From the sequence record NC_004928.1: a DNA stretch of 64,000 bases. One strand, written 5' to 3'. Positions 6,849 to 61,362 of the stretch are shown piece after piece (within the stretch, counting starts at the first letter, position 1; every line of letters starts with the position of its first letter). A program made the translations under genes and the position numbers. The notes under the pieces were generated by a model. The model did no database searches, had not been told where the DNA came from, and saw nothing but the letters and a program-made list of their open reading frames with translations. The stretch comes from Escherichia phage RB69.

Positions 6849-7373
6849 TCATTTTAGCAAAATAAAATCAACTTGTTCTGCTAACGAACGTCTGAACATT
6901 AATTGACAACTTCCGAGTATGAAATCAAGTGCTTCATAGACCGCGATGTAGTATCCTTTAGCTTTGAAGAGTTCAACATCCACCTGGTCATCAAACCATG
7001 CATAAACCGCGTCAACACTTTCAAATCCAAAATAGAACTCTTGAGCCCAATCTTCGTTCAATTCAAATGTGTGCTCAATTCTATAGTATCTTAAGATATT
7101 TTGTTCAAGGAGTTTGTCTTCATTTACTGTAGGACGATTAGGGACATTATAGTTGTCGCCGTGATGGTAGAAGTTACCTGAGATTATTCCATGTTTATCA
7201 AGGAATTCCCATGTTTCTTCAGAGTTGTCAGTGCCAGACCAACCGTAAGGTGAGCGAGGTTCTTTATTCCAAGAGGTTTCCCAAATTCTGACGGCTTTAC
7301 CGTCTTCGATAGCAATTCCTGGTAATGATTCACGTTGAGTACAAAAACTACGTTCTACGCGGTAAACTAACAT
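6849..7373 (-). CDS. hypothetical protein
   Basis: 174-aa ORF. Confidence 0.5.
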   Translation of the reverse strand: MLVYRVERSFCTQRESLPGIAIEDGKAVRIWETSWNKEPRSPYGWSGTDNSEETWEFLDKHGIISGNFYHHGDNYNVPNRPTVNEDKLLEQNILRYYRIEHTFELNEDWAQEFYFGFESVDAVYAWFDDQVDVELFKAKGYYIAVYEALDFILGSCQLMFRRSLAEQVDFILLK

Positions 7374-7399
7374 ATTATTCTCCTCTGGTTGATATGGGT

Positions 7400-7428
7400 T
7401 ATAATATCAAAACCAGAGGAGAAGTAAA
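7400..7428 (-). promoter_or_regulatory. early promoter (GTTTAC, 17 nt, TATTAT); spacer complementary to the downstream ribosome-binding site
   Basis: cctctggtt (7381-7389) and aaccagagg (7411-7419) form an inverted repeat around the -10. Confidence 0.5.
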
Positions 7429-7433
7429 CAACT

Positions 7434-7853
7434 TTATGCGAAAGCAGCTGGGCTATATTTTTTAATTTGGAATTCAGGAACTACCATGAACTGTCCAGCG
7501 AAAACGATGTTATAAAGCTTAACACCATCTTCTACCCAACGGTCGCTAATAAAACCAGCAATTTGCTTAGTTTTCCATGGCGTTCCATCAGTTGCCGCAG
7601 CAATAGTGAATTCATGGTCTTTTTCAACAGAAACTGATCTGCATAGTCCCCATTTGAACGCTTTTTCTTCTGGTTCAATGAATTGGCTTTTAACGTAACC
7701 AATGTTACCATCGGCGTCACGAACTTTAACTTCATTACGTCCAAAAACCGGATCGCTCACAGAAAGAACTTCAACCAACTTCCCGGCAACTTTAGAGCGA
7801 GAAGCATCTGATACGTGTACATAATCACCAATAGAGAGATTTGCAATATTCAT
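7434..7853 (-). CDS. hypothetical protein, tandem paralogue A
   Basis: 139 aa; shares RSK.AG.LVEV and FISD.WVEDG.KLYNIVF motifs with the next ORF. Confidence 0.55.
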   Translation of the reverse strand: MNIANLSIGDYVHVSDASRSKVAGKLVEVLSVSDPVFGRNEVKVRDADGNIGYVKSQFIEPEEKAFKWGLCRSVSVEKDHEFTIAAATDGTPWKTKQIAGFISDRWVEDGVKLYNIVFAGQFMVVPEFQIKKYSPAAFA

Positions 7854-7862
7854 AATAATTCC

Positions 7863-8318
7863 TTAAGCTTTACGAGGAGACACATAGCGAGTGATTTCAG
7901 ATTCTTTAACAACTCGGAAGTCACCTAAGAATACGATATTGTATAACTTTTCACCATCTTCAACCCATTGGTCGCTAATGAAGCCACACATGGTATCAGT
8001 TGTGCTTGGATAACCGTATTCGTCGATGTAATCAAATTCTTTATCGGTAATAAATTCAACACCTTTGCAAAGGGCCCATTTAAACTGTACATTAGGTTCA
8101 GTAGAAGCAAAATGAGCGCTCACAGGAGTTTCCAAAAATTTAGGACTTACGTAAGCGTACCGAGTTTCAGTTTTCCCAGAACTAGGAATGATTCGAACTT
8201 TAACTTCTTTAACACGACCAGTACCATTAGTACGAAGTCCTACCACTTCAACTAGACGACCTGCAGCTTTAGAACGAGATGCAGTTGATACACGCTTAAT
8301 TTCACCAATAGTAATCAT
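7863..8318 (-). CDS. hypothetical protein, tandem paralogue B
   Basis: 151 aa; paralogous to 7434..7853. Confidence 0.55.
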   Translation of the reverse strand: MITIGEIKRVSTASRSKAAGRLVEVVGLRTNGTGRVKEVKVRIIPSSGKTETRYAYVSPKFLETPVSAHFASTEPNVQFKWALCKGVEFITDKEFDYIDEYGYPSTTDTMCGFISDQWVEDGEKLYNIVFLGDFRVVKESEITRYVSPRKA

Positions 8319-8344
8319 AATTTTTCTCTCTTTGTTGTTAAGAT

Positions 8345-8376
8345 TTATACTCCATCCGTCCTTGGATGTACAACAT
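8345..8376 (-). promoter_or_regulatory. early promoter cassette, degenerate copy of the tccaaccatccttgg family
   Basis: minus strand TTGTACA, 17 nt, TATAAAT. Confidence 0.4.
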
Positions 8377-8473
8377 TAATTAAGGATATTAACCACAGCA
8401 CTACGTGGAACTACACTAAAATCACCTGCATGAACAACGTTCAGAAGTTCAACAACCGTCTTCAATCCACTGA

Positions 8474-8872
8474 TCAGTTACCCATCCACTCACTGGACCT
8501 GCGAAACGGACGTCGAATTGAAACAGCTTTACACAACAAATCAGTAGGCTCAATAGGCTTAATCAGAGTACCGTATATACAAGCGATATCCATATCAATA
8601 CAGATGTCTTTAACGGGTTCTACTTCTTCAATCAACAGTTCAAAGTCTGTGCTTGGAAGGGCGGTAGTAGAAATTGTACCATATGAATTTTTAATTTCTA
8701 AGAATAACCAAGGGCCTTCAGCTTGTTTGATGAAGTTAACAATAGTGAAACTATTACCTTGAGTGGCGCCTAAAATTTCACAAAACTTTTCATAAGCTCG
8801 CACTGAAGCACCGTACCAGTTAATTTGTTTTTCGTCTTTCAGGATGTAAGTAGCCGTAGTATTGATATTCAT
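8474..8872 (-). CDS. hypothetical protein
   Basis: 132-aa ORF. Confidence 0.5.
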   Translation of the reverse strand: MNINTTATYILKDEKQINWYGASVRAYEKFCEILGATQGNSFTIVNFIKQAEGPWLFLEIKNSYGTISTTALPSTDFELLIEEVEPVKDICIDMDIACIYGTLIKPIEPTDLLCKAVSIRRPFRRSSEWMGN

Positions 8873-8890
8873 AATGTTTTCCTGTTTGGT

Positions 8891-8938
8891 ATAAGATAGA
8901 AAGATTATACTCCAACCATCCTTGGTTGTAAACTGTTT
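8891..8938. repeat. about 48-bp direct repeat, copy 1 (second copy at 50964..51010)
   Basis: taagatagaaagattatactccaaccatccttggttgtaaactgtttt read by eye at both sites. Confidence 0.6.
8904..8933 (-). promoter_or_regulatory. early promoter (GTTTACA, 17 nt, TATAAT) with spacer hairpin
   Basis: minus strand GTTTACAACCAAGGATGGTTGGAGTATAAT; spacer holds caacca-agga-tggttg. Confidence 0.55.
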
Positions 8939-9615
8939 TATCGCTGTTTTACACTTAACGGGTCAGGATTCTCAGGGACATCTTCAAGGCCAAGCGCATA
9001 ACGCTGAGCATATTTTAACATCAAAATATCTTTAGCACAATCATGAATACTATCATGGGCAACGAATCCTTTTAGCGTACCCATCGGTAATGGACACATA
9101 CTTAATCCTCGTGTCAACGAGTAAGCTTCGATTGCTGTACGAATATCGCGTTGAGCCCAGAATTTAACCGGTTCTAATTTATCGGTATCAATCTCTGGTT
9201 CAAGAACACCTTCATCACGATAGAGGTCACGAATCAAATCGACCAAGATCGGGAAGTCAAAGCTCATACCACGGCACCACATCTGTGATTTCCATTGGTC
9301 AACTTTATTAGCTCGACAATAATCTAAAAAGATTTTAATGCCTTCAAGCGTAGTGACATCGTCTTCAGACGGGGCCAAGTTTTTACGTGCTTCAGCCGAT
9401 TGTTCTTTCCACCATTTCATAGTGGATTTAGCGAAAACTCGCTTCCCTTTCTGAGAAGCTAAATTAAATTTAATTCGCTTACCTCGTTGAACAAGTTCTT
9501 CAAATGATTCAACAACTTCAGGGTCGGAATTATATGCAATAACCGCAAGGTCAATAACAGCCGCTTTTGATGTATTGCCGAATGTTTCAAAATCTATAAT
9601 AACATCAGTGCTCAT
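8938..9615 (-). CDS. dexA: exonuclease A (DnaQ-like 3-prime to 5-prime exonuclease)
   Basis: 225 aa; N-terminal IIDFETFG exonuclease motif; T4 dexA size and position. Confidence 0.8.
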   Translation of the reverse strand: MSTDVIIDFETFGNTSKAAVIDLAVIAYNSDPEVVESFEELVQRGKRIKFNLASQKGKRVFAKSTMKWWKEQSAEARKNLAPSEDDVTTLEGIKIFLDYCRANKVDQWKSQMWCRGMSFDFPILVDLIRDLYRDEGVLEPEIDTDKLEPVKFWAQRDIRTAIEAYSLTRGLSMCPLPMGTLKGFVAHDSIHDCAKDILMLKYAQRYALGLEDVPENPDPLSVKQR

Positions 9616-9624
9616 AATTTTCTC

Positions 9625-10938
9625 TCAAATAAAATGGACGTCAAAACGACCACGAGTTGTGCCGACATACAATAACTGTTTAGCTAATTCTGAATCAGCA
9701 TAATGGATACACGGTGTATAAACAAAGGCCGTGTCAACAGACATACCCTGGGCCTTATGGAAGGTTGATACTGGTAGTGCCTTCACCTTAGTGAACATAC
9801 GTTTAGCATCCCAGAATTCGCTCCATGGAGCTTTACCACCTTTATTCCAGAATTTGTATGTTTCTGCGGTCTTAGCCAAAAACAAATTGAATTTATAAAG
9901 CTCTTCTTCGGAAGAAATAACCTTTATATCCTCGCGGATGTATTCTTCATCATCCCCATATGTTTCTACTGTAAGATTCCAATATCGTATCATATACTCG
10001 CCCGAAACACCACGTGCTTTAACGAATGTAGACGTTTCTACAGCATCTCGAATACGAACGAATTGCCCGTTATTGAAAAGCATTTCGGTCATATTTTTAC
10101 CATCTAGCTTGTACGTCTTAGTAAATGGCTCTTGTAGAACAATGACTTCGTCTTTAATAAATGGTTTTTCTGTTTCAAGAAGTTTTCGGCGAATAATTGA
10201 ATTTAACTTGTCCACTGACTTATTTGTGAATGCCATCATCCGATTTTCGAAAAGGTCTTCAGGAGTTTTAACGACATTAAAATAATTCATCATATATGAT
10301 TTAAGGTCGGTATATCCATGAACACCATGCCCGTCAACTACTTTATCATAAATCCATTTGCCATTACGAATATCGGTCGCAACATCAATAATTGGTGCAT
10401 TGCTACGTTTAACTTCTGTAAGGTCGCATTGCACGAAGTCTTTGTGAGTGAAGAAAGGACTTAGATATGCAGTGGATTCGCCTGGGTCTACCGGTCGAAT
10501 CTGACATCGGTCGCCAATTCCAATTACTGTGCACCATTTAGGGATACTAGCTAACATTATTTTAAACAGAGAACGGTCGCACATTGACGCTTCATCAAAT
10601 AACAGTACACGACACAAGGCTAAGTCGGGAACCTTTTTCTGTTCAAACAATACGTTTTCTTCGTATGTAGTTGGGTTGATTTTAAGAATGCTATGAATAG
10701 TCGATGCTTCTTGACCAGCAAGTTTGCTTAGAACCTTTTTAGCGGCATGTGTTGGTGCTGCTAAAATAATACCTGATTCTCCAGAAGAAATAAGAGCTTC
10801 AACGATAAATCTAGTAAGGGTTGTTTTACCTGTACCGGCAGGCCCATTAATAGTTACGTGATGTTTCTTTTCTTTAATAGCTTTCATAACAACGTTGAAG
10901 GCGTTTTTCTGGCCTTCAGTCAAATCATCAAATGTCAT
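9625..10938 (-). CDS. dda: Dda DNA helicase (superfamily 1)
   Basis: 437 aa; Walker A GPAGTGKTT; near-colinear with the T4 Dda sequence as I recall it. Confidence 0.9.
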   Translation of the reverse strand: MTFDDLTEGQKNAFNVVMKAIKEKKHHVTINGPAGTGKTTLTRFIVEALISSGESGIILAAPTHAAKKVLSKLAGQEASTIHSILKINPTTYEENVLFEQKKVPDLALCRVLLFDEASMCDRSLFKIMLASIPKWCTVIGIGDRCQIRPVDPGESTAYLSPFFTHKDFVQCDLTEVKRSNAPIIDVATDIRNGKWIYDKVVDGHGVHGYTDLKSYMMNYFNVVKTPEDLFENRMMAFTNKSVDKLNSIIRRKLLETEKPFIKDEVIVLQEPFTKTYKLDGKNMTEMLFNNGQFVRIRDAVETSTFVKARGVSGEYMIRYWNLTVETYGDDEEYIREDIKVISSEEELYKFNLFLAKTAETYKFWNKGGKAPWSEFWDAKRMFTKVKALPVSTFHKAQGMSVDTAFVYTPCIHYADSELAKQLLYVGTTRGRFDVHFI

Positions 10939-12814: not shown

Positions 12815-13396
12815 CTAAAAATTCAACATTTTCAAATGAATGATTTTGTATAATCTAGATAAAGGGTCATATTCTAAGTCTTCAATTTCCACAATCTCAA
12901 ATCTAGAGATACCTGAGACCATGTACTCTTGTTCAGATTCAATCATATCTAGGACATCAACACGTGTTTCTTCCATAACATGCTTAGGGTTCTTTCCGGC
13001 AAGTACAATGTTAATCATGTTTTGGTAGTAATCAAAAATGAATGGAGCATTCCTGAGACTAAGAATAGTGTACGTCTGATATTCCCATCTCCCGGAGAAT
13101 TGACGAGCTGTACTGAAATCAGTTGTGAACGATGTTACTCGTCCAGGAGACCAATGGCATCCAACAGAAAGAAGTGAAAGACGTTCTACTTCTTCTGGAG
13201 TTACACCACGGTAGAGTTCTACTGGTACTGTAGAAGTCATATGCTTACGAACAAGATGGTCTAATTCATAGTGGAAATCCGGGTCTTCCTTAGAATCGGT
13301 GCAAGCCCAGAGAATGTTTTGTTCTTGGCGGGTGAATTTGCTATCAATCAGATTTGTTAGGTATTCGCGTTCTTGAAGTTCAGATTGACATGTCAT
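12815..13396 (-). CDS. modB: ADP-ribosyltransferase ModB-like
   Basis: 193 aa; YRGV motif; paralogue of modA. Confidence 0.6.
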   Translation of the reverse strand: MTCQSELQEREYLTNLIDSKFTRQEQNILWACTDSKEDPDFHYELDHLVRKHMTSTVPVELYRGVTPEEVERLSLLSVGCHWSPGRVTSFTTDFSTARQFSGRWEYQTYTILSLRNAPFIFDYYQNMINIVLAGKNPKHVMEETRVDVLDMIESEQEYMVSGISRFEIVEIEDLEYDPLSRLYKIIHLKMLNF

Positions 13397-13423
13397 GATA
13401 GACCTCCATTTAAAGATAAGCCT

Positions 13424-13452
13424 ATCATAACATGAGAGGAGGGAATGTAAAC
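13424..13452 (-). promoter_or_regulatory. early promoter (GTTTAC, 17 nt, TATGAT) upstream of modB
   Basis: spacer cctcc is complementary to the downstream GGAGG site. Confidence 0.5.
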
Positions 13453-18947: not shown

Positions 18948-18976
18948 TTTAACTCCTTAGTTGATTTGATAGGACT

Positions 18977-19006
18977 ACTATACTATAGTCCATCTATAAT
19001 GTAAAC
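18977..19006 (-). promoter_or_regulatory. early promoter (GTTTAC, 18 nt, TATAGT), ggactat-type cassette
   Basis: upstream of the AAGGAG site of the lipoprotein gene. Confidence 0.45.
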
Positions 19007-19689: not shown

Positions 19690-19749
19690 TTCAATTTCCT
19701 CTGTAGTTGATAGAAAGATAGTAACACAGTATGTGGTGCTTGTAAACAG

Positions 19750-20176: not shown

Positions 20177-20469
20177 TCAGCGTGATAAACTGTAGCACCT
20201 TTAGTATTATTCATTTGAACTACGTCTACCGGAGAAATTACTCGATAGAGACGTGGTTCACCTCCATAAGAGCGTGCTGCTCGTCCTGCATAAATCTTTG
20301 CTAAACCGATATCTTCAGTAAAGAATACACGATCCAAGTTTTTCTTACGTCCAGTTTCAGACAGAACTCCTGTTTCCTCAGGAGGACAAAGCATGTTTTC
20401 GATGTTAGCTGAACTACTTGAACCGTGATAAAAAATCTTAAATTCTGCTTTACAATCGATGGTTTTCAT
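20152..20469 (-). CDS. hypothetical protein
   Basis: 105-aa ORF with its own early promoter. Confidence 0.45.
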   Translation of the reverse strand: MKTIDCKAEFKIFYHGSSSSANIENMLCPPEETGVLSETGRKKNLDRVFFTEDIGLAKIYAGRAARSYGGEPRLYRVISPVDVVQMNNTKGATVYHAEWAFCEEI

Positions 20470-20495
20470 TTTGTTCTCCAGTAGGTGATAGGTCT

Positions 20496-20523
20496 ATAAT
20501 ACACAACTACTGGAGAAGTAAAC
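20496..20523 (-). promoter_or_regulatory. early promoter (GTTTAC, 16 nt, TATTAT); spacer complementary to downstream ribosome-binding site
   Basis: ctccagtag (20476-20484) and ctactggag (20508-20516) form a 9-bp inverted repeat that includes the GGAG site. Confidence 0.5.
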
Positions 20524-20898
20524 TTAAAAACGTAATTTAGATATATCTGCGTTGATTTCGTTTTGGTTTGCGTCGTATGCAATTAAACGAACCGCTTTAG
20601 ATGGGTCATTCAATGCATAGAAATGATGGAACATTGCTCGAACGATATCACCATTTACGAGTTCTACCTGGATAGGAGAACCTTTTTCGAGTTGGAAATG
20701 TTCATAAGCTTTGATGGTTCGCAGATAATCAAGTTTTTGATTTCCGGCTCCAACAATTTGTACGATACGTTTGCCCATGTTTTCCATACGAGATACAATA
20801 GTTTTAGGAGCAAGAATAACGTAGGTTGCCAGCGGAGAAACTACTTCAACAGTTGTGTTTTCGGTGATTGCAGTAAAAATTGCTTGAGACATATTCAT
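20524..20898 (-). CDS. hypothetical protein
   Basis: 124-aa ORF. Confidence 0.5.
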   Translation of the reverse strand: MNMSQAIFTAITENTTVEVVSPLATYVILAPKTIVSRMENMGKRIVQIVGAGNQKLDYLRTIKAYEHFQLEKGSPIQVELVNGDIVRAMFHHFYALNDPSKAVRLIAYDANQNEINADISKLRF

Positions 20899-20927
20899 AA
20901 TGTTTTCCTCTTGGTTGGTGTAAGTAC

Positions 20928-20957
20928 ATCATATCATGTCTAGAGGAAGATGTAAAC
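20928..20957 (-). promoter_or_regulatory. early promoter (GTTTAC, 18 nt, TATGAT)
   Basis: minus strand GTTTACatcttcctctagacatgaTATGAT. Confidence 0.4.
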
Positions 20958-20963
20958 CCCGAA

Positions 20964-20988
20964 AGGAGACCGAAGTCTCCTTTTTATT
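20964..20988 (+). terminator. hairpin aggagac-cgaa-gtctcct with T-tract on the plus strand
   Basis: the U-tract follows the stem only on the plus strand; on the minus strand it is a UUCG hairpin just after the gene 41 stop. Confidence 0.4.
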
Positions 20989-22429
20989 AAAATTTTAACT
21001 CATTGGCTAAGCTATCTAGGTCAGCACGTGTTGCTTTGGCTTTACCTACGCGTTCCGTACGATTCACCTCTGCCTGACGCATCTGAGCACCTGCGTTTTC
21101 ATTTACTGTGTTAGGTGTGTTCATGCCTTCTTGCTCAATCTCAACCCATTTCTGATTGCCTTTACGTACACCCATCAGGAATTTATTCCACTTATTCTTA
21201 TCGCCGTATCGTGATTTGATTTGCTTGATAAGTTGTTGTTCAGCTTGTGCAAGTTCTTCGGTTTCAATTACAGCCAACATGAAATCTGCCGTTGCTGGTA
21301 AACCTGCTGATTCTGCGATATCACTCATGTTCATGTCTGAAGCATCCCATGCTGCACGTCCTACTTGAGCTGCAGTCCATAGAACTGTTTCAGATTCTAC
21401 TGCTAATGCACGAAGTTCTTCTGCGATAGCTTTAACTAATGTGTAGCTATTTTCAGTGTAAACTCTGATACGACAAGACCCACAAATACCTAAGTAATCA
21501 ACCATGATTACAGATGGCACAAAGTTCTTCTTAAGTTTTAACTCATTAAGCAATGCACGGAATGTATTAGCATTAGCTCCACCAGTAGGATACTGTTTAA
21601 CTACTAAACGTCCTAATGTTGTTTTTGAACGCCATTTTTCCATCTTGGCTTTATATTCAGCATAAGATACGTTACCATCATCAATATCATCAAGTGATAC
21701 GTCAAGCATGTTTGCATCTATACGCTTAGCGCAAACTTCTTCAGCCATTTCCATAGAAATATAAAGAACGTTATGACCTGTTTGAAGATAATCTGCAGCA
21801 AGTGAACAAAGGCCTAAAGATTTACCGACGTTAACACCAGCCATTAAAACGTTTAGTGTACCGGTTTCAGCACCACCTTTGGTTATTTTATTCAAAATGT
21901 TTAATTTGAACGGGACCTTACGTGCTTTATTTAGATAAGAAAGCCAGCGTGCTTCGTAGTCTTCCATCCAGTCATGTCCAACATAACTATCGAACGAAAT
22001 TGAAAGTGCTTGACGCATAATATCAGGAATAGCTCCTACGTCAGGCATTTTCTTGTTACGTTGTTCTGGAGGTAGTTCAGCATTAGACTGAATTTCAATG
22101 ATTTTGGACGTAGCATTATACATCGCTTTTTGCTGGACATATTTCTCAGTTTCTTTAACCAACCATTCGTGGTCTTCAGGAGTATCAGCCAATTTTTCAA
22201 TTAGGTCTGAAGTTCCTTTATATTCGGCTTCAGTTAAAGAACTGTTATCTAAAGCCACCTTTAATGCATTGATAGATGGCATTGCATTATATTCGTTAAC
22301 GTGGCTCTTTATAATTTTAAAGACGTTTTTTGCCGGTCCACGCTCAAAGTAATCAGAATCCATATAAGGCCAGACCTTAGAAAAATAAGCCTGGTCATAT
22401 ACTAGATGAGACAAAATAATTTCTACCAC
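20987..22429 (-). CDS. 41: replicative DNA helicase gp41 (DnaB-like)
   Basis: 480 aa; colinear with the T4 gp41 sequence as I recall it. Confidence 0.9.
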   Translation of the reverse strand: MVEIILSHLVYDQAYFSKVWPYMDSDYFERGPAKNVFKIIKSHVNEYNAMPSINALKVALDNSSLTEAEYKGTSDLIEKLADTPEDHEWLVKETEKYVQQKAMYNATSKIIEIQSNAELPPEQRNKKMPDVGAIPDIMRQALSISFDSYVGHDWMEDYEARWLSYLNKARKVPFKLNILNKITKGGAETGTLNVLMAGVNVGKSLGLCSLAADYLQTGHNVLYISMEMAEEVCAKRIDANMLDVSLDDIDDGNVSYAEYKAKMEKWRSKTTLGRLVVKQYPTGGANANTFRALLNELKLKKNFVPSVIMVDYLGICGSCRIRVYTENSYTLVKAIAEELRALAVESETVLWTAAQVGRAAWDASDMNMSDIAESAGLPATADFMLAVIETEELAQAEQQLIKQIKSRYGDKNKWNKFLMGVRKGNQKWVEIEQEGMNTPNTVNENAGAQMRQAEVNRTERVGKAKATRADLDSLANELKF

Positions 22430-42740: not shown

Positions 42741-43018
42741 GATATTTTCCTCATTTTAAGACGATAGGAAGATAATAACATGTCTTCCCTATCGTTGTAC
42801 ATTATTAACCGAACTTTTTTGGCGCCTTTCCAGCCTTCGTACATAACTGCACAAGTCAGTAGTACAGCGTGCTGGCATTCTTTGTATTTGTAAATCCAGA
42901 ACCAGCGTAAGAAGTCTTCATCCTCAACGCCGGTGGATTTCATATTGGCAAAGAATTCGGCACGTTCTTCACGAAGCTTTTGCGATAACATAGATTCAGG
43001 ATTCATTTTGTGTTCCAC
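42725..43018 (-). CDS. hypothetical protein
   Basis: 97-aa ORF. Confidence 0.4.
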   Translation of the reverse strand: MEHKMNPESMLSQKLREERAEFFANMKSTGVEDEDFLRWFWIYKYKECQHAVLLTCAVMYEGWKGAKKVRLIMYNDREDMLLSSYRLKMRKISWPKN

Positions 43019-43873: not shown

Positions 43874-44088
43874 TTTGTTTTCCTCTGTGGTAGATGATGC
43901 TAATCTTAACATATCTATCGAGGATGTAAACTGTTTTATGAAAATATTTTTGATTTGAGAGGGGCACAAGGAGATAGTGAAGTGAAGATTCCAATGGATT
44001 ATATTAGAAATGAGATAAAGAAGACCAGGCGGCACCTGGTCAATCTTCTATGATATCAGAGTCGTATCCTAATGAAATCAAGGACTTT

Positions 44089-50947: not shown

Positions 50948-50963
50948 AATGTTTTCCTCTCGT

Positions 50964-51010
50964 TAAGATAGAAAGATTATACTCCAACCATCCTTGGTTG
51001 TAAACTGTTT
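50964..51010. repeat. about 48-bp direct repeat, copy 2 (first copy at 8891..8938)
   Basis: same sequence as copy 1 read by eye. Confidence 0.6.
50976..51005 (-). promoter_or_regulatory. early promoter (GTTTACA, 17 nt, TATAAT) within the repeat
   Basis: identical to the 8904..8933 cassette. Confidence 0.55.
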
Positions 51011-51069
51011 TTATGATTTTAATGCATTCATTGCGTTAAAAAGTTTAGAATACTGCAACTGGAGATTCG

Positions 51070-53613: not shown

Positions 53614-53640
53614 GTTTTACCTCCAGTAGTTGATAGGTCT

Positions 53641-53669
53641 ATAATAACATAACCATAGACCTTGTAAAC
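53641..53669 (-). promoter_or_regulatory. early promoter (GTTTAC, 17 nt, TATTAT), ggtctat cassette
   Basis: minus strand GTTTACaaggtctatggttatgtTATTATagacc. Confidence 0.5.
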
Positions 53670-56798: not shown

Positions 56799-57329
56799 TT
56801 ATTTCAAAGTCGGGATAATAGAATCAAGATAAGCTTTAAGAGCAACTGCTTCATCTTTGTCTAATGTAATGATATGTTGACGAAGGTCATCAATTTGGCG
56901 AATAACTACGACATCACCGTCTTCATAAGAAGGATTAACGCCTAAGACTGTTGTATAGTCAGGGCGGTCCTGATTTGTAATAAAAGCATTACGGCATTTA
57001 GCCCATTGAAGTTTGGCTTTTTTGACTGTTTCAGATTCCATGAATTCTTTCACCTTAGTGACGAATGTTTTCCAATTATTAATAGAAAAACATTCGTCTT
57101 CAGTTTCGATATTAACCCCACTATAAAGTCCGTGATAAAAACGAACTTGAAGGTCTTCGTCAATGTTAATTACAGATGCATGGCCTGGTGGATTGAGTTT
57201 CAAAATCTTGTCCAGTTCCATAGGAAGAATAGTAACAGCATCATCTTCTTGTGTCAGAACGTAAGCATAACCACGTTTTTCGATACATAAATCGCCAAAC
57301 AACTCGGTTGTTTCAATTACAGTTTTCAT
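56799..57329 (-). CDS. hypothetical protein
   Basis: ORF track starts at a TTG (57341); ATG start at MKTVIETTELF. Confidence 0.5.
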   Translation of the reverse strand: MKTVIETTELFGDLCIEKRGYAYVLTQEDDAVTILPMELDKILKLNPPGHASVINIDEDLQVRFYHGLYSGVNIETEDECFSINNWKTFVTKVKEFMESETVKKAKLQWAKCRNAFITNQDRPDYTTVLGVNPSYEDGDVVVIRQIDDLRQHIITLDKDEAVALKAYLDSIIPTLK

Positions 57330-57510: not shown

Positions 57511-57646
57511 TTTACCATACTCGCTTCAATAAGATTAATTACACCATTTACCATGTTATACGTAAACATCGGATAATTGTATTGTACTATAACATAAGCG
57601 ATAAGCAAAAGTTTCATTTTGTTCTCCATTTGTTTTGATAGGACTA

Positions 57647-57675
57647 CTATAACATAGTCCTACCAAGATGTAAAC
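57647..57675 (-). promoter_or_regulatory. early promoter (GTTTAC, 17 nt, TTATAG), ggactat cassette
   Basis: minus strand GTTTACatcttggtaggactatgTTATAGtagtcc. Confidence 0.45.
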
Positions 57676-58068: not shown

Positions 58069-58096
58069 AACGTTCTCCTCTAGTAAGTAAGGACTA

Positions 58097-58124
58097 CTAT
58101 AACACAACCTGAGGAGAAGTAAAC
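58097..58124 (-). promoter_or_regulatory. early promoter (GTTTAC, 16 nt, TTATAG)
   Basis: spacer ctcctc is complementary to the downstream GAGGAG. Confidence 0.45.
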
Positions 58125-58169
58125 TGATAGATGCCAAAAAGCCCCAACCTTTCGGAAGGGGCTAGTAAA

Positions 58170-61305: not shown

Positions 61306-61333
61306 TTTGATTTCTCCTCTAGTTGACAGGTCT

Positions 61334-61362
61334 ATAGTAACACAACTAGAGGAGAAGTAAAC
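61334..61362 (-). promoter_or_regulatory. early promoter (GTTTAC, 17 nt, TACTAT); spacer forms a 13-bp inverted repeat with the regB ribosome-binding site
   Basis: tctcctctagttg (61313-61325) and caactagaggaga (61343-61355). Confidence 0.55.

Follow-up and report, generated by a model that had tools for sequence, protein, structure and literature searches.

Can an early phage promoter carry, within its own sequence, the means of silencing the gene behind it on transcripts that arrive from further upstream? This question is raised by a locus at positions 7378–7428 (minus strand) of Escherichia phage RB69 (sequence record NC_004928.1), in a stretch of 64 000 nt that was analysed as a whole and is referred to here as the window. 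At this locus, the spacer between the −35 and −10 hexamers of a predicted early promoter is complementary to the Shine–Dalgarno (SD) region of the downstream gene, and a first-pass annotation had proposed the same arrangement at five early-type promoters. The analysis described below indicates that the spacer/SD hairpin is genuine, recurs and has been maintained in evolution.

The window derives from a Tequatrovirus that is related to, yet distinct from, T4, with several intergenic regions that are barely alignable to their T4 counterparts; over 7–9 kb, identity to the best-matching record does not exceed 96.6%. Its early genes are carried on the minus strand, and every hairpin site is therefore the reverse complement of the letters as given. 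Read on that strand, the sites consist of GTTTAC (−35), a spacer of 15–17 nt, a −10 hexamer, ~27 nt of leader and the ATG. The promoters are of the early type (GTTTAC-N15-17-TAnnnT) and do not match the gp55 late promoter TATAAATA. The cassettes are compact and intergenic, spanning 55–60 nt from the −35 to the ATG, with the SD and ATG positioned downstream of the sigma-70-like promoter. The stop codon of the upstream gene is located 3–9 nt before TTTAC, corresponding to 8–14 nt before the first paired base. Transcription start sites in the window phage are consensus predictions.

Spacer/SD hairpins at early promoters of the window

At the sites concerned, the 5′ arm (TTCTCC...) starts on the final base of the −35 hexamer and runs into the spacer, the −10 hexamer is situated in the hairpin loop, and the 3′ arm is the SD sequence itself (...GAGGAGAA), ending 3–5 nt before the ATG (Table 1). 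As the 5′ arm lies upstream of the −10 of these predicted promoters, RNA initiated at the local promoter cannot contain it, just as the first-pass annotation had stated. The locus at 7378–7423 harbours a 13-bp perfect inverted repeat (TTCTCCTCTGGTT/AACCAGAGGAGAA) with a loop of 20 nt, the regB promoter a 14-bp perfect repeat with a loop of 17 nt at 61312–61356 (the repeat had been recognized previously, at a length of 13 bp), and the site at 20474–20517 an 11-bp perfect repeat with a loop of 22 nt. Complementarity between spacer and SD was also found at 58073–58118, where it is not significant when taken alone. At the fifth proposed site, a modB-like gene, the claim failed (see below).

In an unbiased search of the window for perfect inverted repeats with arms of at least 8 bp and loops of 8–45 nt, the hairpin sites were among the longest repeats returned. 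Three repeats with arms of at least 12 bp were observed, as compared with 0.25 expected from 100 dinucleotide shuffles of the window, and two with arms of at least 13 bp, as compared with 0.06 expected. The promoter/SD sites hold three of the four window repeats of at least 11 bp.

The predicted stability of these elements was evaluated using hairpin-only folds, which were used in place of whole-segment z-scores, the latter (−1.5 to −4.1 for read-through RNAs of ~117 nt) being diluted by the flanks. Values of −23.7 kcal/mol (z −7.3), −20.7 kcal/mol (z −5.1) and −16.7 kcal/mol (z −3.9) were obtained for 7378–7423, the regB hairpin and 20474–20517, respectively, such that the expectation of folding better than shuffled controls held for these three sites and not for 58070–58120 (z −1.2). 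With the same tool, the T4 control hairpins reached −14.0 (e), −16.3 (49), −11.6 (I-TevI) and −8.5 kcal/mol (soc), and the three strong window hairpins are thus at least as stable as these proven inhibitory hairpins.

For each site, two RNAs were folded, one starting 40 nt upstream of the −35 (read-through) and the other at the predicted start site (local), and SD accessibility was expressed as the mean unpaired probability over a 9-nt SD window. The predicted values for local and read-through RNA, respectively, were 0.57 and 0.00 for the promoter at 7428, 0.64 and 0.00 at 20522, 0.75 and 0.14 at 61361, and 0.80 and 0.30 at 58123. At the three strong sites, accessibility is therefore predicted to fall from 0.57–0.75 to 0.00–0.14, which bears out the proposal that read-through RNA can fold to hide the ribosome-binding site. 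A scan for terminator-like sites returned none in 7300–9100 or 20400–21100 and none overlapping 61312–61356; as no such site separates the promoter at 8932 from that at 7428, or the promoter at 20956 from that at 20522, read-through RNA is to be expected at both loci. No Rfam family matched at gathering score anywhere in the window.

Weak spacer/SD complementarity was observed at two further minus-strand promoters, i.e. UUCCUCU/AGAGGAA (7 bp) at 20956–20898, with an intrinsic terminator just upstream, and UCCUC..UAGAU/AUCUA..GAGGA (5+5 bp) at 43930–43873; neither exceeds the cross-pairings.

Table 1. Coordinates of promoter-associated hairpins and related features (window numbering unless T4 is indicated)
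Feature	Position	Strand	Remarks
−35 hexamer TTTACT, early-type promoter of 174-aa gene (T4 motB.2 position)	7423..7428	−	matches T4 8141–8224 between dexA and motB.2
5′ arm TTCTCCTCTGGTT in promoter spacer	7411..7423	−	13-bp perfect inverted repeat
−10 hexamer TATTAT in hairpin loop	7401..7406	−	consensus
3′ arm AACCAGAGGAGAA, SD region	7378..7390	−	ATG 7373–7371, coding sequence 7373–6849
5′ arm TTCTCCTCTAGTTG in regB promoter spacer	61343..61356	−	−35 at 61356–61361, −10 at 61334–61339
3′ arm CAACTAGAGGAGAA, regB SD	61312..61325	−	coding sequence 61305–60847; protein 77% identical to T4 RegB
5′ arm TTCTCCAGTAG in promoter spacer	20507..20517	−	−35 at 20517–20522, −10 at 20496–20501
3′ arm CTACTGGAGAA, SD of 105-aa gene (phrog_2110)	20474..20484	−	coding sequence 20469–20152
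Weak example: spacer TTCTCCTC(A)GG and CU(A)GAGGAGAA, SD of 59-aa DUF7438 gene	58073..58118	−	coding sequence 58068–57889; 8 bp + bulge + 2 bp
Intrinsic terminator GCCCCUUCCGAAAGGUUGGGGC then U5	58136..58163	−	18 nt upstream of 58123 promoter
Hairpin of modB-like gene	13389..13434	−	−10 TATGAT at 13424–13429, AUG 13396–13394
Type B hairpins, window	57639–57662, 53635–53662, 42761–42795, about 18965–18995	−	
Type B hairpins, T4	57989 (mobD.2), 20611 (dmd), 73938, 129917		

A modified design at the modB-like gene

The fifth site, at 13401–13452, precedes a gene whose product belongs to an ADP-ribosylase PHROG. The proposed spacer/SD pairing was not recovered here: only CCTCC/GGAGG is in common, which is at chance level, and this pairing was rejected, being no better than that of the same spacer with the leaders of other genes. 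The actual hairpin of this gene comprises 16–19 bp, in which CAUGUUAUGAUAGGCU, made up of the last spacer bases, the −10 and the following 4 nt, is paired with the 3′ portion of the SD, the AUG and the 5 nt after it. SD and AUG fall within 13389–13404, i.e. inside the helix, which reaches −22.2 kcal/mol (z −7.0), as compared with −10.1 kcal/mol for the antisense strand. The modB-like hairpin thus keeps the same read-through logic, although the arms assigned to it by the first-pass annotation were wrong. T4 modB and L157/L158 share the −10/SD-AUG design with other sequences; the orthologue search yielded three loci only, and the covariation of the modB hairpin accordingly refers to the window, T4 and L157/L158.

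Covariation between spacer and leader

Between window sites, the inner arms vary while complementarity is kept (CTCTAGTTG/CAACTAGAG, CTCTGGTT/AACCAGAG and AGTAG/CTACT). When paralogues and other phages are included, the inner-arm pairs comprise CTAGTTG/CAACTAG, CTGGTT/AACCAG, AGTAG/CTACT, CATG/CATG, TTCTTTG/CAAAGAA, TTTTCT/AGAAAA and CTCTCTG/CAGAGAG. For the 18 promoter-leader units of the window, pairing of a spacer with its own leader exceeded that with permuted partners (p 0.002–0.004). The same design was identified at the T4 promoters of regB, denV, alc, alt.-3, ndd.4, nrdC.8, motB.2 and modB, often with G·U pairs. Viral contigs searched with GTTTACTTCTCCTC provided more T4-like cassettes, which, with one exception, contributed the new inner arms CATG/CATG, TTCTTTG/CAAAGAA and TTTTCT/AGAAAA; in the IMG/VR scan with this query, ~90% of the matches were chance occurrences in unrelated contigs, and only ~13 retained both the −10 and the SD.

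The regB orthologues, retrieved from viral and metagenome contigs, represent about ten promoter types, seven of which exhibit 10–15 bp of spacer/SD complementarity with differing sequences. Examples of such arm pairs are UUUUCCUCUUGACUG/CAGUUAAGAGGAGAA in T4, UUUCUCCUCUUUAUG/CAUAAAGAGGAGAAA in L134, UCUCCUGUAAG/CUUACAGGAGA in L136 and AUCCUCUCUG/CAGAGAGGAU in L151. As a MAFFT alignment of 14 regB cassettes placed the arms out of register, a permutation of own versus other duplexes was used instead: across ten regB promoter types, own-partner energies totalled −140.8, as compared with −88.2 ± 8.9 for permuted partners (p<1e-5). The most distant types, L140 and L156, are without a spacer/SD helix and have an intrinsic terminator just upstream. 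In these two loci (L140, about 9910–9945; L156, about 2915–2950), a strong terminator, GGGCUCCUAGGAGCCC or GGGCUCUUCGGAGCCC followed by a U-tract, is located directly upstream of the regB promoter. Terminator and hairpin look like alternative insulators of the regB gene.

Many early leaders on the minus strand share a motif after the −10, consisting of (A)GACCUAUCAACUAC followed by GGAG and an A-rich segment (for example 61326–61333, 20485–20495, 53620–53640 and 19690–19715). In addition, the spacer at 20507–20518 has a 12-bp fit to the 53668 gene's leader, as against 11 bp to its own leader. The shared motif and the cross-matching spacer suggest that the cassettes have descended from a common unit.

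Survey of early-promoter cassettes

Cassettes from the window, T4 and the fetched loci were pooled into a set of 144 distinct T4-like early-promoter cassettes. In 45 of these, the SD or AUG is paired with part of the promoter (designated type A), and another six mostly represent the modB variant. The design therefore recurs, as had been claimed, and is present in about one third of the cassettes. The 34 strongest cassettes reduce to 27 distinct arm pairs, of which 23 have a helix beginning at the last base of the −35, and the 3′ end of the helix is located 0–7 nt before the AUG in all 27. In none of the 27 arm pairs is the 3′ arm followed by a U-tract; the AUG lies within the adjoining 8 nt, which are A-rich. 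Helices anchored in the promoter have their 3′ ends at one of three places, close to the start site, at the SD's 3′ edge or beyond the AUG, and almost none ends at +14 to +18 after the −10.

For a comparison of strands, cassettes were selected blind to strand, with either strand folding at −12 kcal/mol or below. A stability advantage of >2 kcal/mol was held by the sense strand in 44 cassettes and by the antisense strand in six, as compared with 17 versus 17 among unstructured cassettes. This sense bias points to sense-strand RNA, rather than duplex DNA, a protein site or antisense RNA. Sequence anatomy, predicted stability and covariation are, together with this bias, established properties of the element. 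Pairing is weaker at promoters with an intrinsic terminator immediately upstream (mean −6.7 versus −10.1 kcal/mol, p=0.03), as would be expected of a helix that is of consequence only under read-through.

A further 28 of the 144 cassettes (about 19%) carry a different hairpin (type B), in which the spacer pairs with −8 to +6, TGnTATA is positioned in a 6-nt loop and the helix closes before about +6, leaving the SD free. These hairpins have arms of 8–15 bp and energies of −11 to −22 kcal/mol, favour the sense strand (23 versus 2) and are not followed by a U-tract. They probably correspond to the 'stem overlapping the −10' of the published PeSL cassettes.

Cassettes of this kind are found as dispersed repeats. 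An identical 48-bp block, AAAACAGTTTACAACCAAGGATGGTTGGAGTATAATCTTTCTATCTTA, constitutes the promoters at 8932 and 51004 (positions 8885–8940 and 50957–51012, minus strand), which are 42 kb apart and have unrelated flanks; as a dispersed promoter cassette, such a block would permit recombination of the PeSL type. A regB-type cassette matches the T4 denV promoter. Elsewhere on the minus strand, at 57060–57098, a 12-bp perfect inverted repeat (GACGAAUGUUUUUC/GGAAAACAUUCGUC; 14 bp in the predicted fold, −20 kcal/mol) precedes the SD (AAGGUG) of the following open reading frame by 5 nt and has neither a promoter nor a U-tract; it may serve between cistrons as a stabiliser or as a processing hairpin.

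Proposed mechanism and alternative explanations

We consider it moderately probable, on the basis of predicted folds and of analogy, that the element is a cis-acting hairpin which would occlude the ribosome-binding site in read-through sense mRNA only, such that the gene would be translated solely from RNA of its own promoter. In this model, the promoter would encode the 5′ arm, in the spacer just after the −35 or, at the modB-like gene, in the −10 region, while the SD (plus the AUG at the modB-like gene) would serve as the 3′ arm and the loop would hold the −10 and the start site. Local RNA would start past the 5′ arm and have a short, unstructured leader of ~20 nt that can be translated, whereas read-through RNA would fold once the SD exits the polymerase, barring 30S subunits. 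The products of regB, of the ModB-like ADP-ribosyltransferase gene and of small accessory genes would thereby be made only during the burst of their own early promoter. Helix formation in vivo, translational silencing and the selective reason proposed here are inferred, the silencing from thermodynamics and analogy.

Two corollaries may be attached to this model. As RegB needs GGAGAAUAAAA in single-stranded form and is blocked by structure, the same helix should shield read-through RNA from RegB cleavage, while local RNA would be cut. An untranslated gene on read-through RNA could, moreover, invite Rho polarity, which would reconcile occlusion of the ribosome-binding site with the 'attenuator' activity ascribed to PeSL elements.

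That the hairpins instead act on transcription, as proposed for PeSL cassettes, appears rather unlikely. The stem-loop would then attenuate or terminate upstream transcription, either directly or via Rho on the untranslated gene, so that downstream cassettes would not pile up transcription from several promoters. Such a role was proposed for an RB49 promoter stem-loop that, when placed before lacZ, cut expression as much as a strong terminator (Arbiol et al. 2010). It would also agree with the Rho-polarity sensitivity of T4 delayed-early RNA in the absence of translation, as noted in a review, and with the lower frequency of hairpins where an intrinsic terminator is present, as expected of alternatives. 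However, the missing U-tract after all 27 arm pairs rules out an intrinsic terminator at the hairpin sites, where the terminator scan was likewise negative, and genuine terminators in the same genomes look different, with a GC-rich stem, a UUCG-type loop and a U run. The Rho route, for its part, needs the ribosome site to be occluded first and is hence an extension of the occlusion model. Only a small probability is also assigned to the hairpin being primarily an element of RNA stability or processing, in which the helix would protect polycistronic RNA (by hiding the RegB site, as a barrier to 3′ exonucleases or as a 5′ stabiliser) and the loss of translation would be secondary. The single-stranded nature of the RegB/S1 target and the inhibition of RegB by secondary structure fit this idea, as do the 3′ arms, which read GGAGAAUAAUA, GGAGAAAUCAA and GGAGAACAAAA, and the same sense bias in type B hairpins, which have no means of acting on the SD, suggests a role common to all hairpins. 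Such an element leaves unexplained why type A helices always extend as far as the SD's 3′ edge, with almost none stopping inside the leader, and why those of the modB type include the AUG, although RegB does not target it. Furthermore, a helix this stable over the SD must block initiation in any case, according to a rule attributed to de Smit and van Duin, by which a stable hairpin over the SD is said to block initiation.

Translational coupling, in which ribosomes finishing the upstream gene would melt the helix and thereby enable downstream translation on polycistronic RNA, is regarded as very improbable, even though the upstream stop codons are located 8–14 nt before the first paired base. 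A ribosome at a stop codon reaches ~8–12 nt downstream and would open at most 0–5 of the 11–19 bp; with terminating ribosomes getting no further than the first few base pairs, coupling in its simple form is unlikely. The helix at 7428 begins 13 nt past the stop, and the design is also found behind terminators or non-coding DNA (58123). It is equally hard to credit that the palindromes have no function in RNA and have arisen by cassette recombination or templated quasi-palindrome mutation, or serve as DNA elements (a cruciform or a protein site). The dispersed repeats described above (the 48-bp block and the regB-type cassette) and the documented PeSL-mediated shuffling are compatible with such an origin, and the three best arms of the window are perfectly Watson–Crick paired, which alone does not discriminate between strands. 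Yet the arm sequences vary by site, which excludes a sequence-specific protein; the sense bias in G·U pairing (44 versus 6) is unexpected for duplex DNA or strand-neutral mutation; and the position of the helix is fixed relative to the SD. Loops of 17–22 nt are poorly suited to cruciform extrusion, and large loops and G·U asymmetry together rule out a cruciform.

Several considerations nevertheless weigh against the occlusion model. No hairpin structure is present in 65 of the 144 early promoters, and the cassette counts include orthologues, such that the p-values overstate independence, the permutation tests ignoring relatedness. Part of the G·U bias could stem from SD constraint and from AT-biased mutation. 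Type B hairpins match type A in stability and in sense bias but do not engage the SD, so that hiding of the SD cannot be the whole story of promoter-embedded hairpins, and a function common to all of them (stability, processing or attenuation) could be primary. The site at 58081–58124 is a weak example with a terminator 18 nt upstream, and its hairpin (58070–58120) reaches only −13.2 kcal/mol at the z-score of −1.2, with 27 of 200 shuffles folding as well, which is not significant. Translation from long versus short transcripts was judged solely from predicted folds, and start sites solely from consensus. With stop codons 3–9 nt before TTTAC, terminating ribosomes may, at some sites, open the initial base pairs of the helix. 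Templated mutation of quasi-palindromes has its classic system in T4, and, the cassettes being dispersed repeats, recombination and templated mutation could keep the arms perfect without selection.

Implications

As a wider and more tentative possibility, which we consider doubtful, these elements might constitute a family-wide translational insulator in mobile early cassettes, in which an anti-SD spacer, present in about one third of them, would silence upstream RNA, hide the RegB site and possibly expose the gene to Rho. If so, the dose and timing of accessory genes would be independent of the place where a cassette lands, which would help to explain why immediate-early proteins are shut off so sharply, why RegB prefers early to middle RNA and how the cassettes can shuffle freely. 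Both the shut-off of immediate-early proteins and the restriction of RegB to early transcripts are still described as incompletely understood in T4, and promoter-dependent translation via a hairpin would add a simple cis layer to these problems. PeSL cassettes would also acquire a function in translation, one not put forward by those who described them, and the engineering of phages and of synthetic operons would gain compact natural parts that combine a strong promoter with a read-through-proof ribosome-binding site. Early gene expression of T4 is a classic system. The idea is directly open to T4 genetics.

Comparison with known systems

The principle is known from T4 late genes and IS10, and its early-promoter variant, which overlaps with the PeSL cassettes, is apparently new: no description was found in the literature retrieved, the reviews from 2010 on transcription and post-transcriptional control in T4 giving late cases only, although older T4 literature may mention it. 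PeSL cassettes consist of an AT-rich region, a sigma-70-like early promoter, a stem-loop, an SD and an ATG, and are dispersed in variable regions of T4-type genomes (Arbiol 2010; Comeau 2014). The window and T4 similarly carry compact, repeated promoter-SD-ATG cassettes, and the type B hairpins at 57639–57662, 53635–53662 and 42761–42795 resemble PeSL elements in stem position. Published PeSL stems, by contrast, are located inside or upstream of the promoter (the PST/T4 pair just upstream, as AGNA-loop-TCNT) and have been read as terminators and recombination sites, whereas in the spacer/SD design the 3′ arm is the SD, 20–30 nt downstream of the −10, with no U-tract after it. In the 2010 PeSL paper by Arbiol and colleagues, the words 'ribosome' and 'translation' are absent, and the SD features only as the 3′ end of the cassette.

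With regard to RegB, the RegB/S1 target is described as GGA(G/U) followed by seven A-rich, C-poor nucleotides in single-stranded form, structure being inhibitory. The 3′ arms resemble such sites in reading GGAG followed by an A-rich segment at the SDs of early genes, including regB itself. A difference, and a link that is absent from the RegB papers compared, is that the hairpin would turn the same sequence into a non-substrate in long RNA. The consensus fits the sequence at 7428, 61361 and 20522, where it is predicted to be single-stranded only in local RNA.

A related logic operates in IS10/Tn10, where, as reportedly described by Davis, Simons and Kleckner in 1985, an upstream segment of external read-through RNA pairs with the transposase gene's ribosome-binding site, while RNA from its own promoter is without this segment. 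PMC13181058 cites Davis et al. 1985 for sequestered translation signals. As in this fold-back inhibition, outside transcripts of the phage cassettes would silence themselves and own transcripts would be free; unlike IS10, which involves a single transposase gene, the phage design is used repeatedly in a tandem gene array and has its arm in the promoter spacer.

The closest parallel is provided by the T4 genes e, soc, 49 and I-TevI, in which, according to a review, hairpins inhibit translation on long transcripts while promoter-proximal transcripts are translated. The first-pass annotation had called this logic textbook for T4 late genes such as e and 49, and the review indeed names all four, all of them with late promoters. 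Here as there, the helix covers the SD and/or AUG (the SD being wholly inside the 3′ arm at three window sites), the promoter is situated in the 5′ arm or loop such that the proximal transcript is without the 5′ arm (as predicted for the window), and the hairpins are comparable in size and energy. The T4 late genes use gp55 promoters (TATAAATA or a close variant), which delay expression to late infection, whereas the window promoters are sigma-70 early promoters in which the −35/−10 spacer is the arm, and expression would be restricted to the immediate-early burst, with later read-through RNA excluded from it. Moreover, in contrast to the four late genes of T4, the early design is present in roughly a third of the cassettes.

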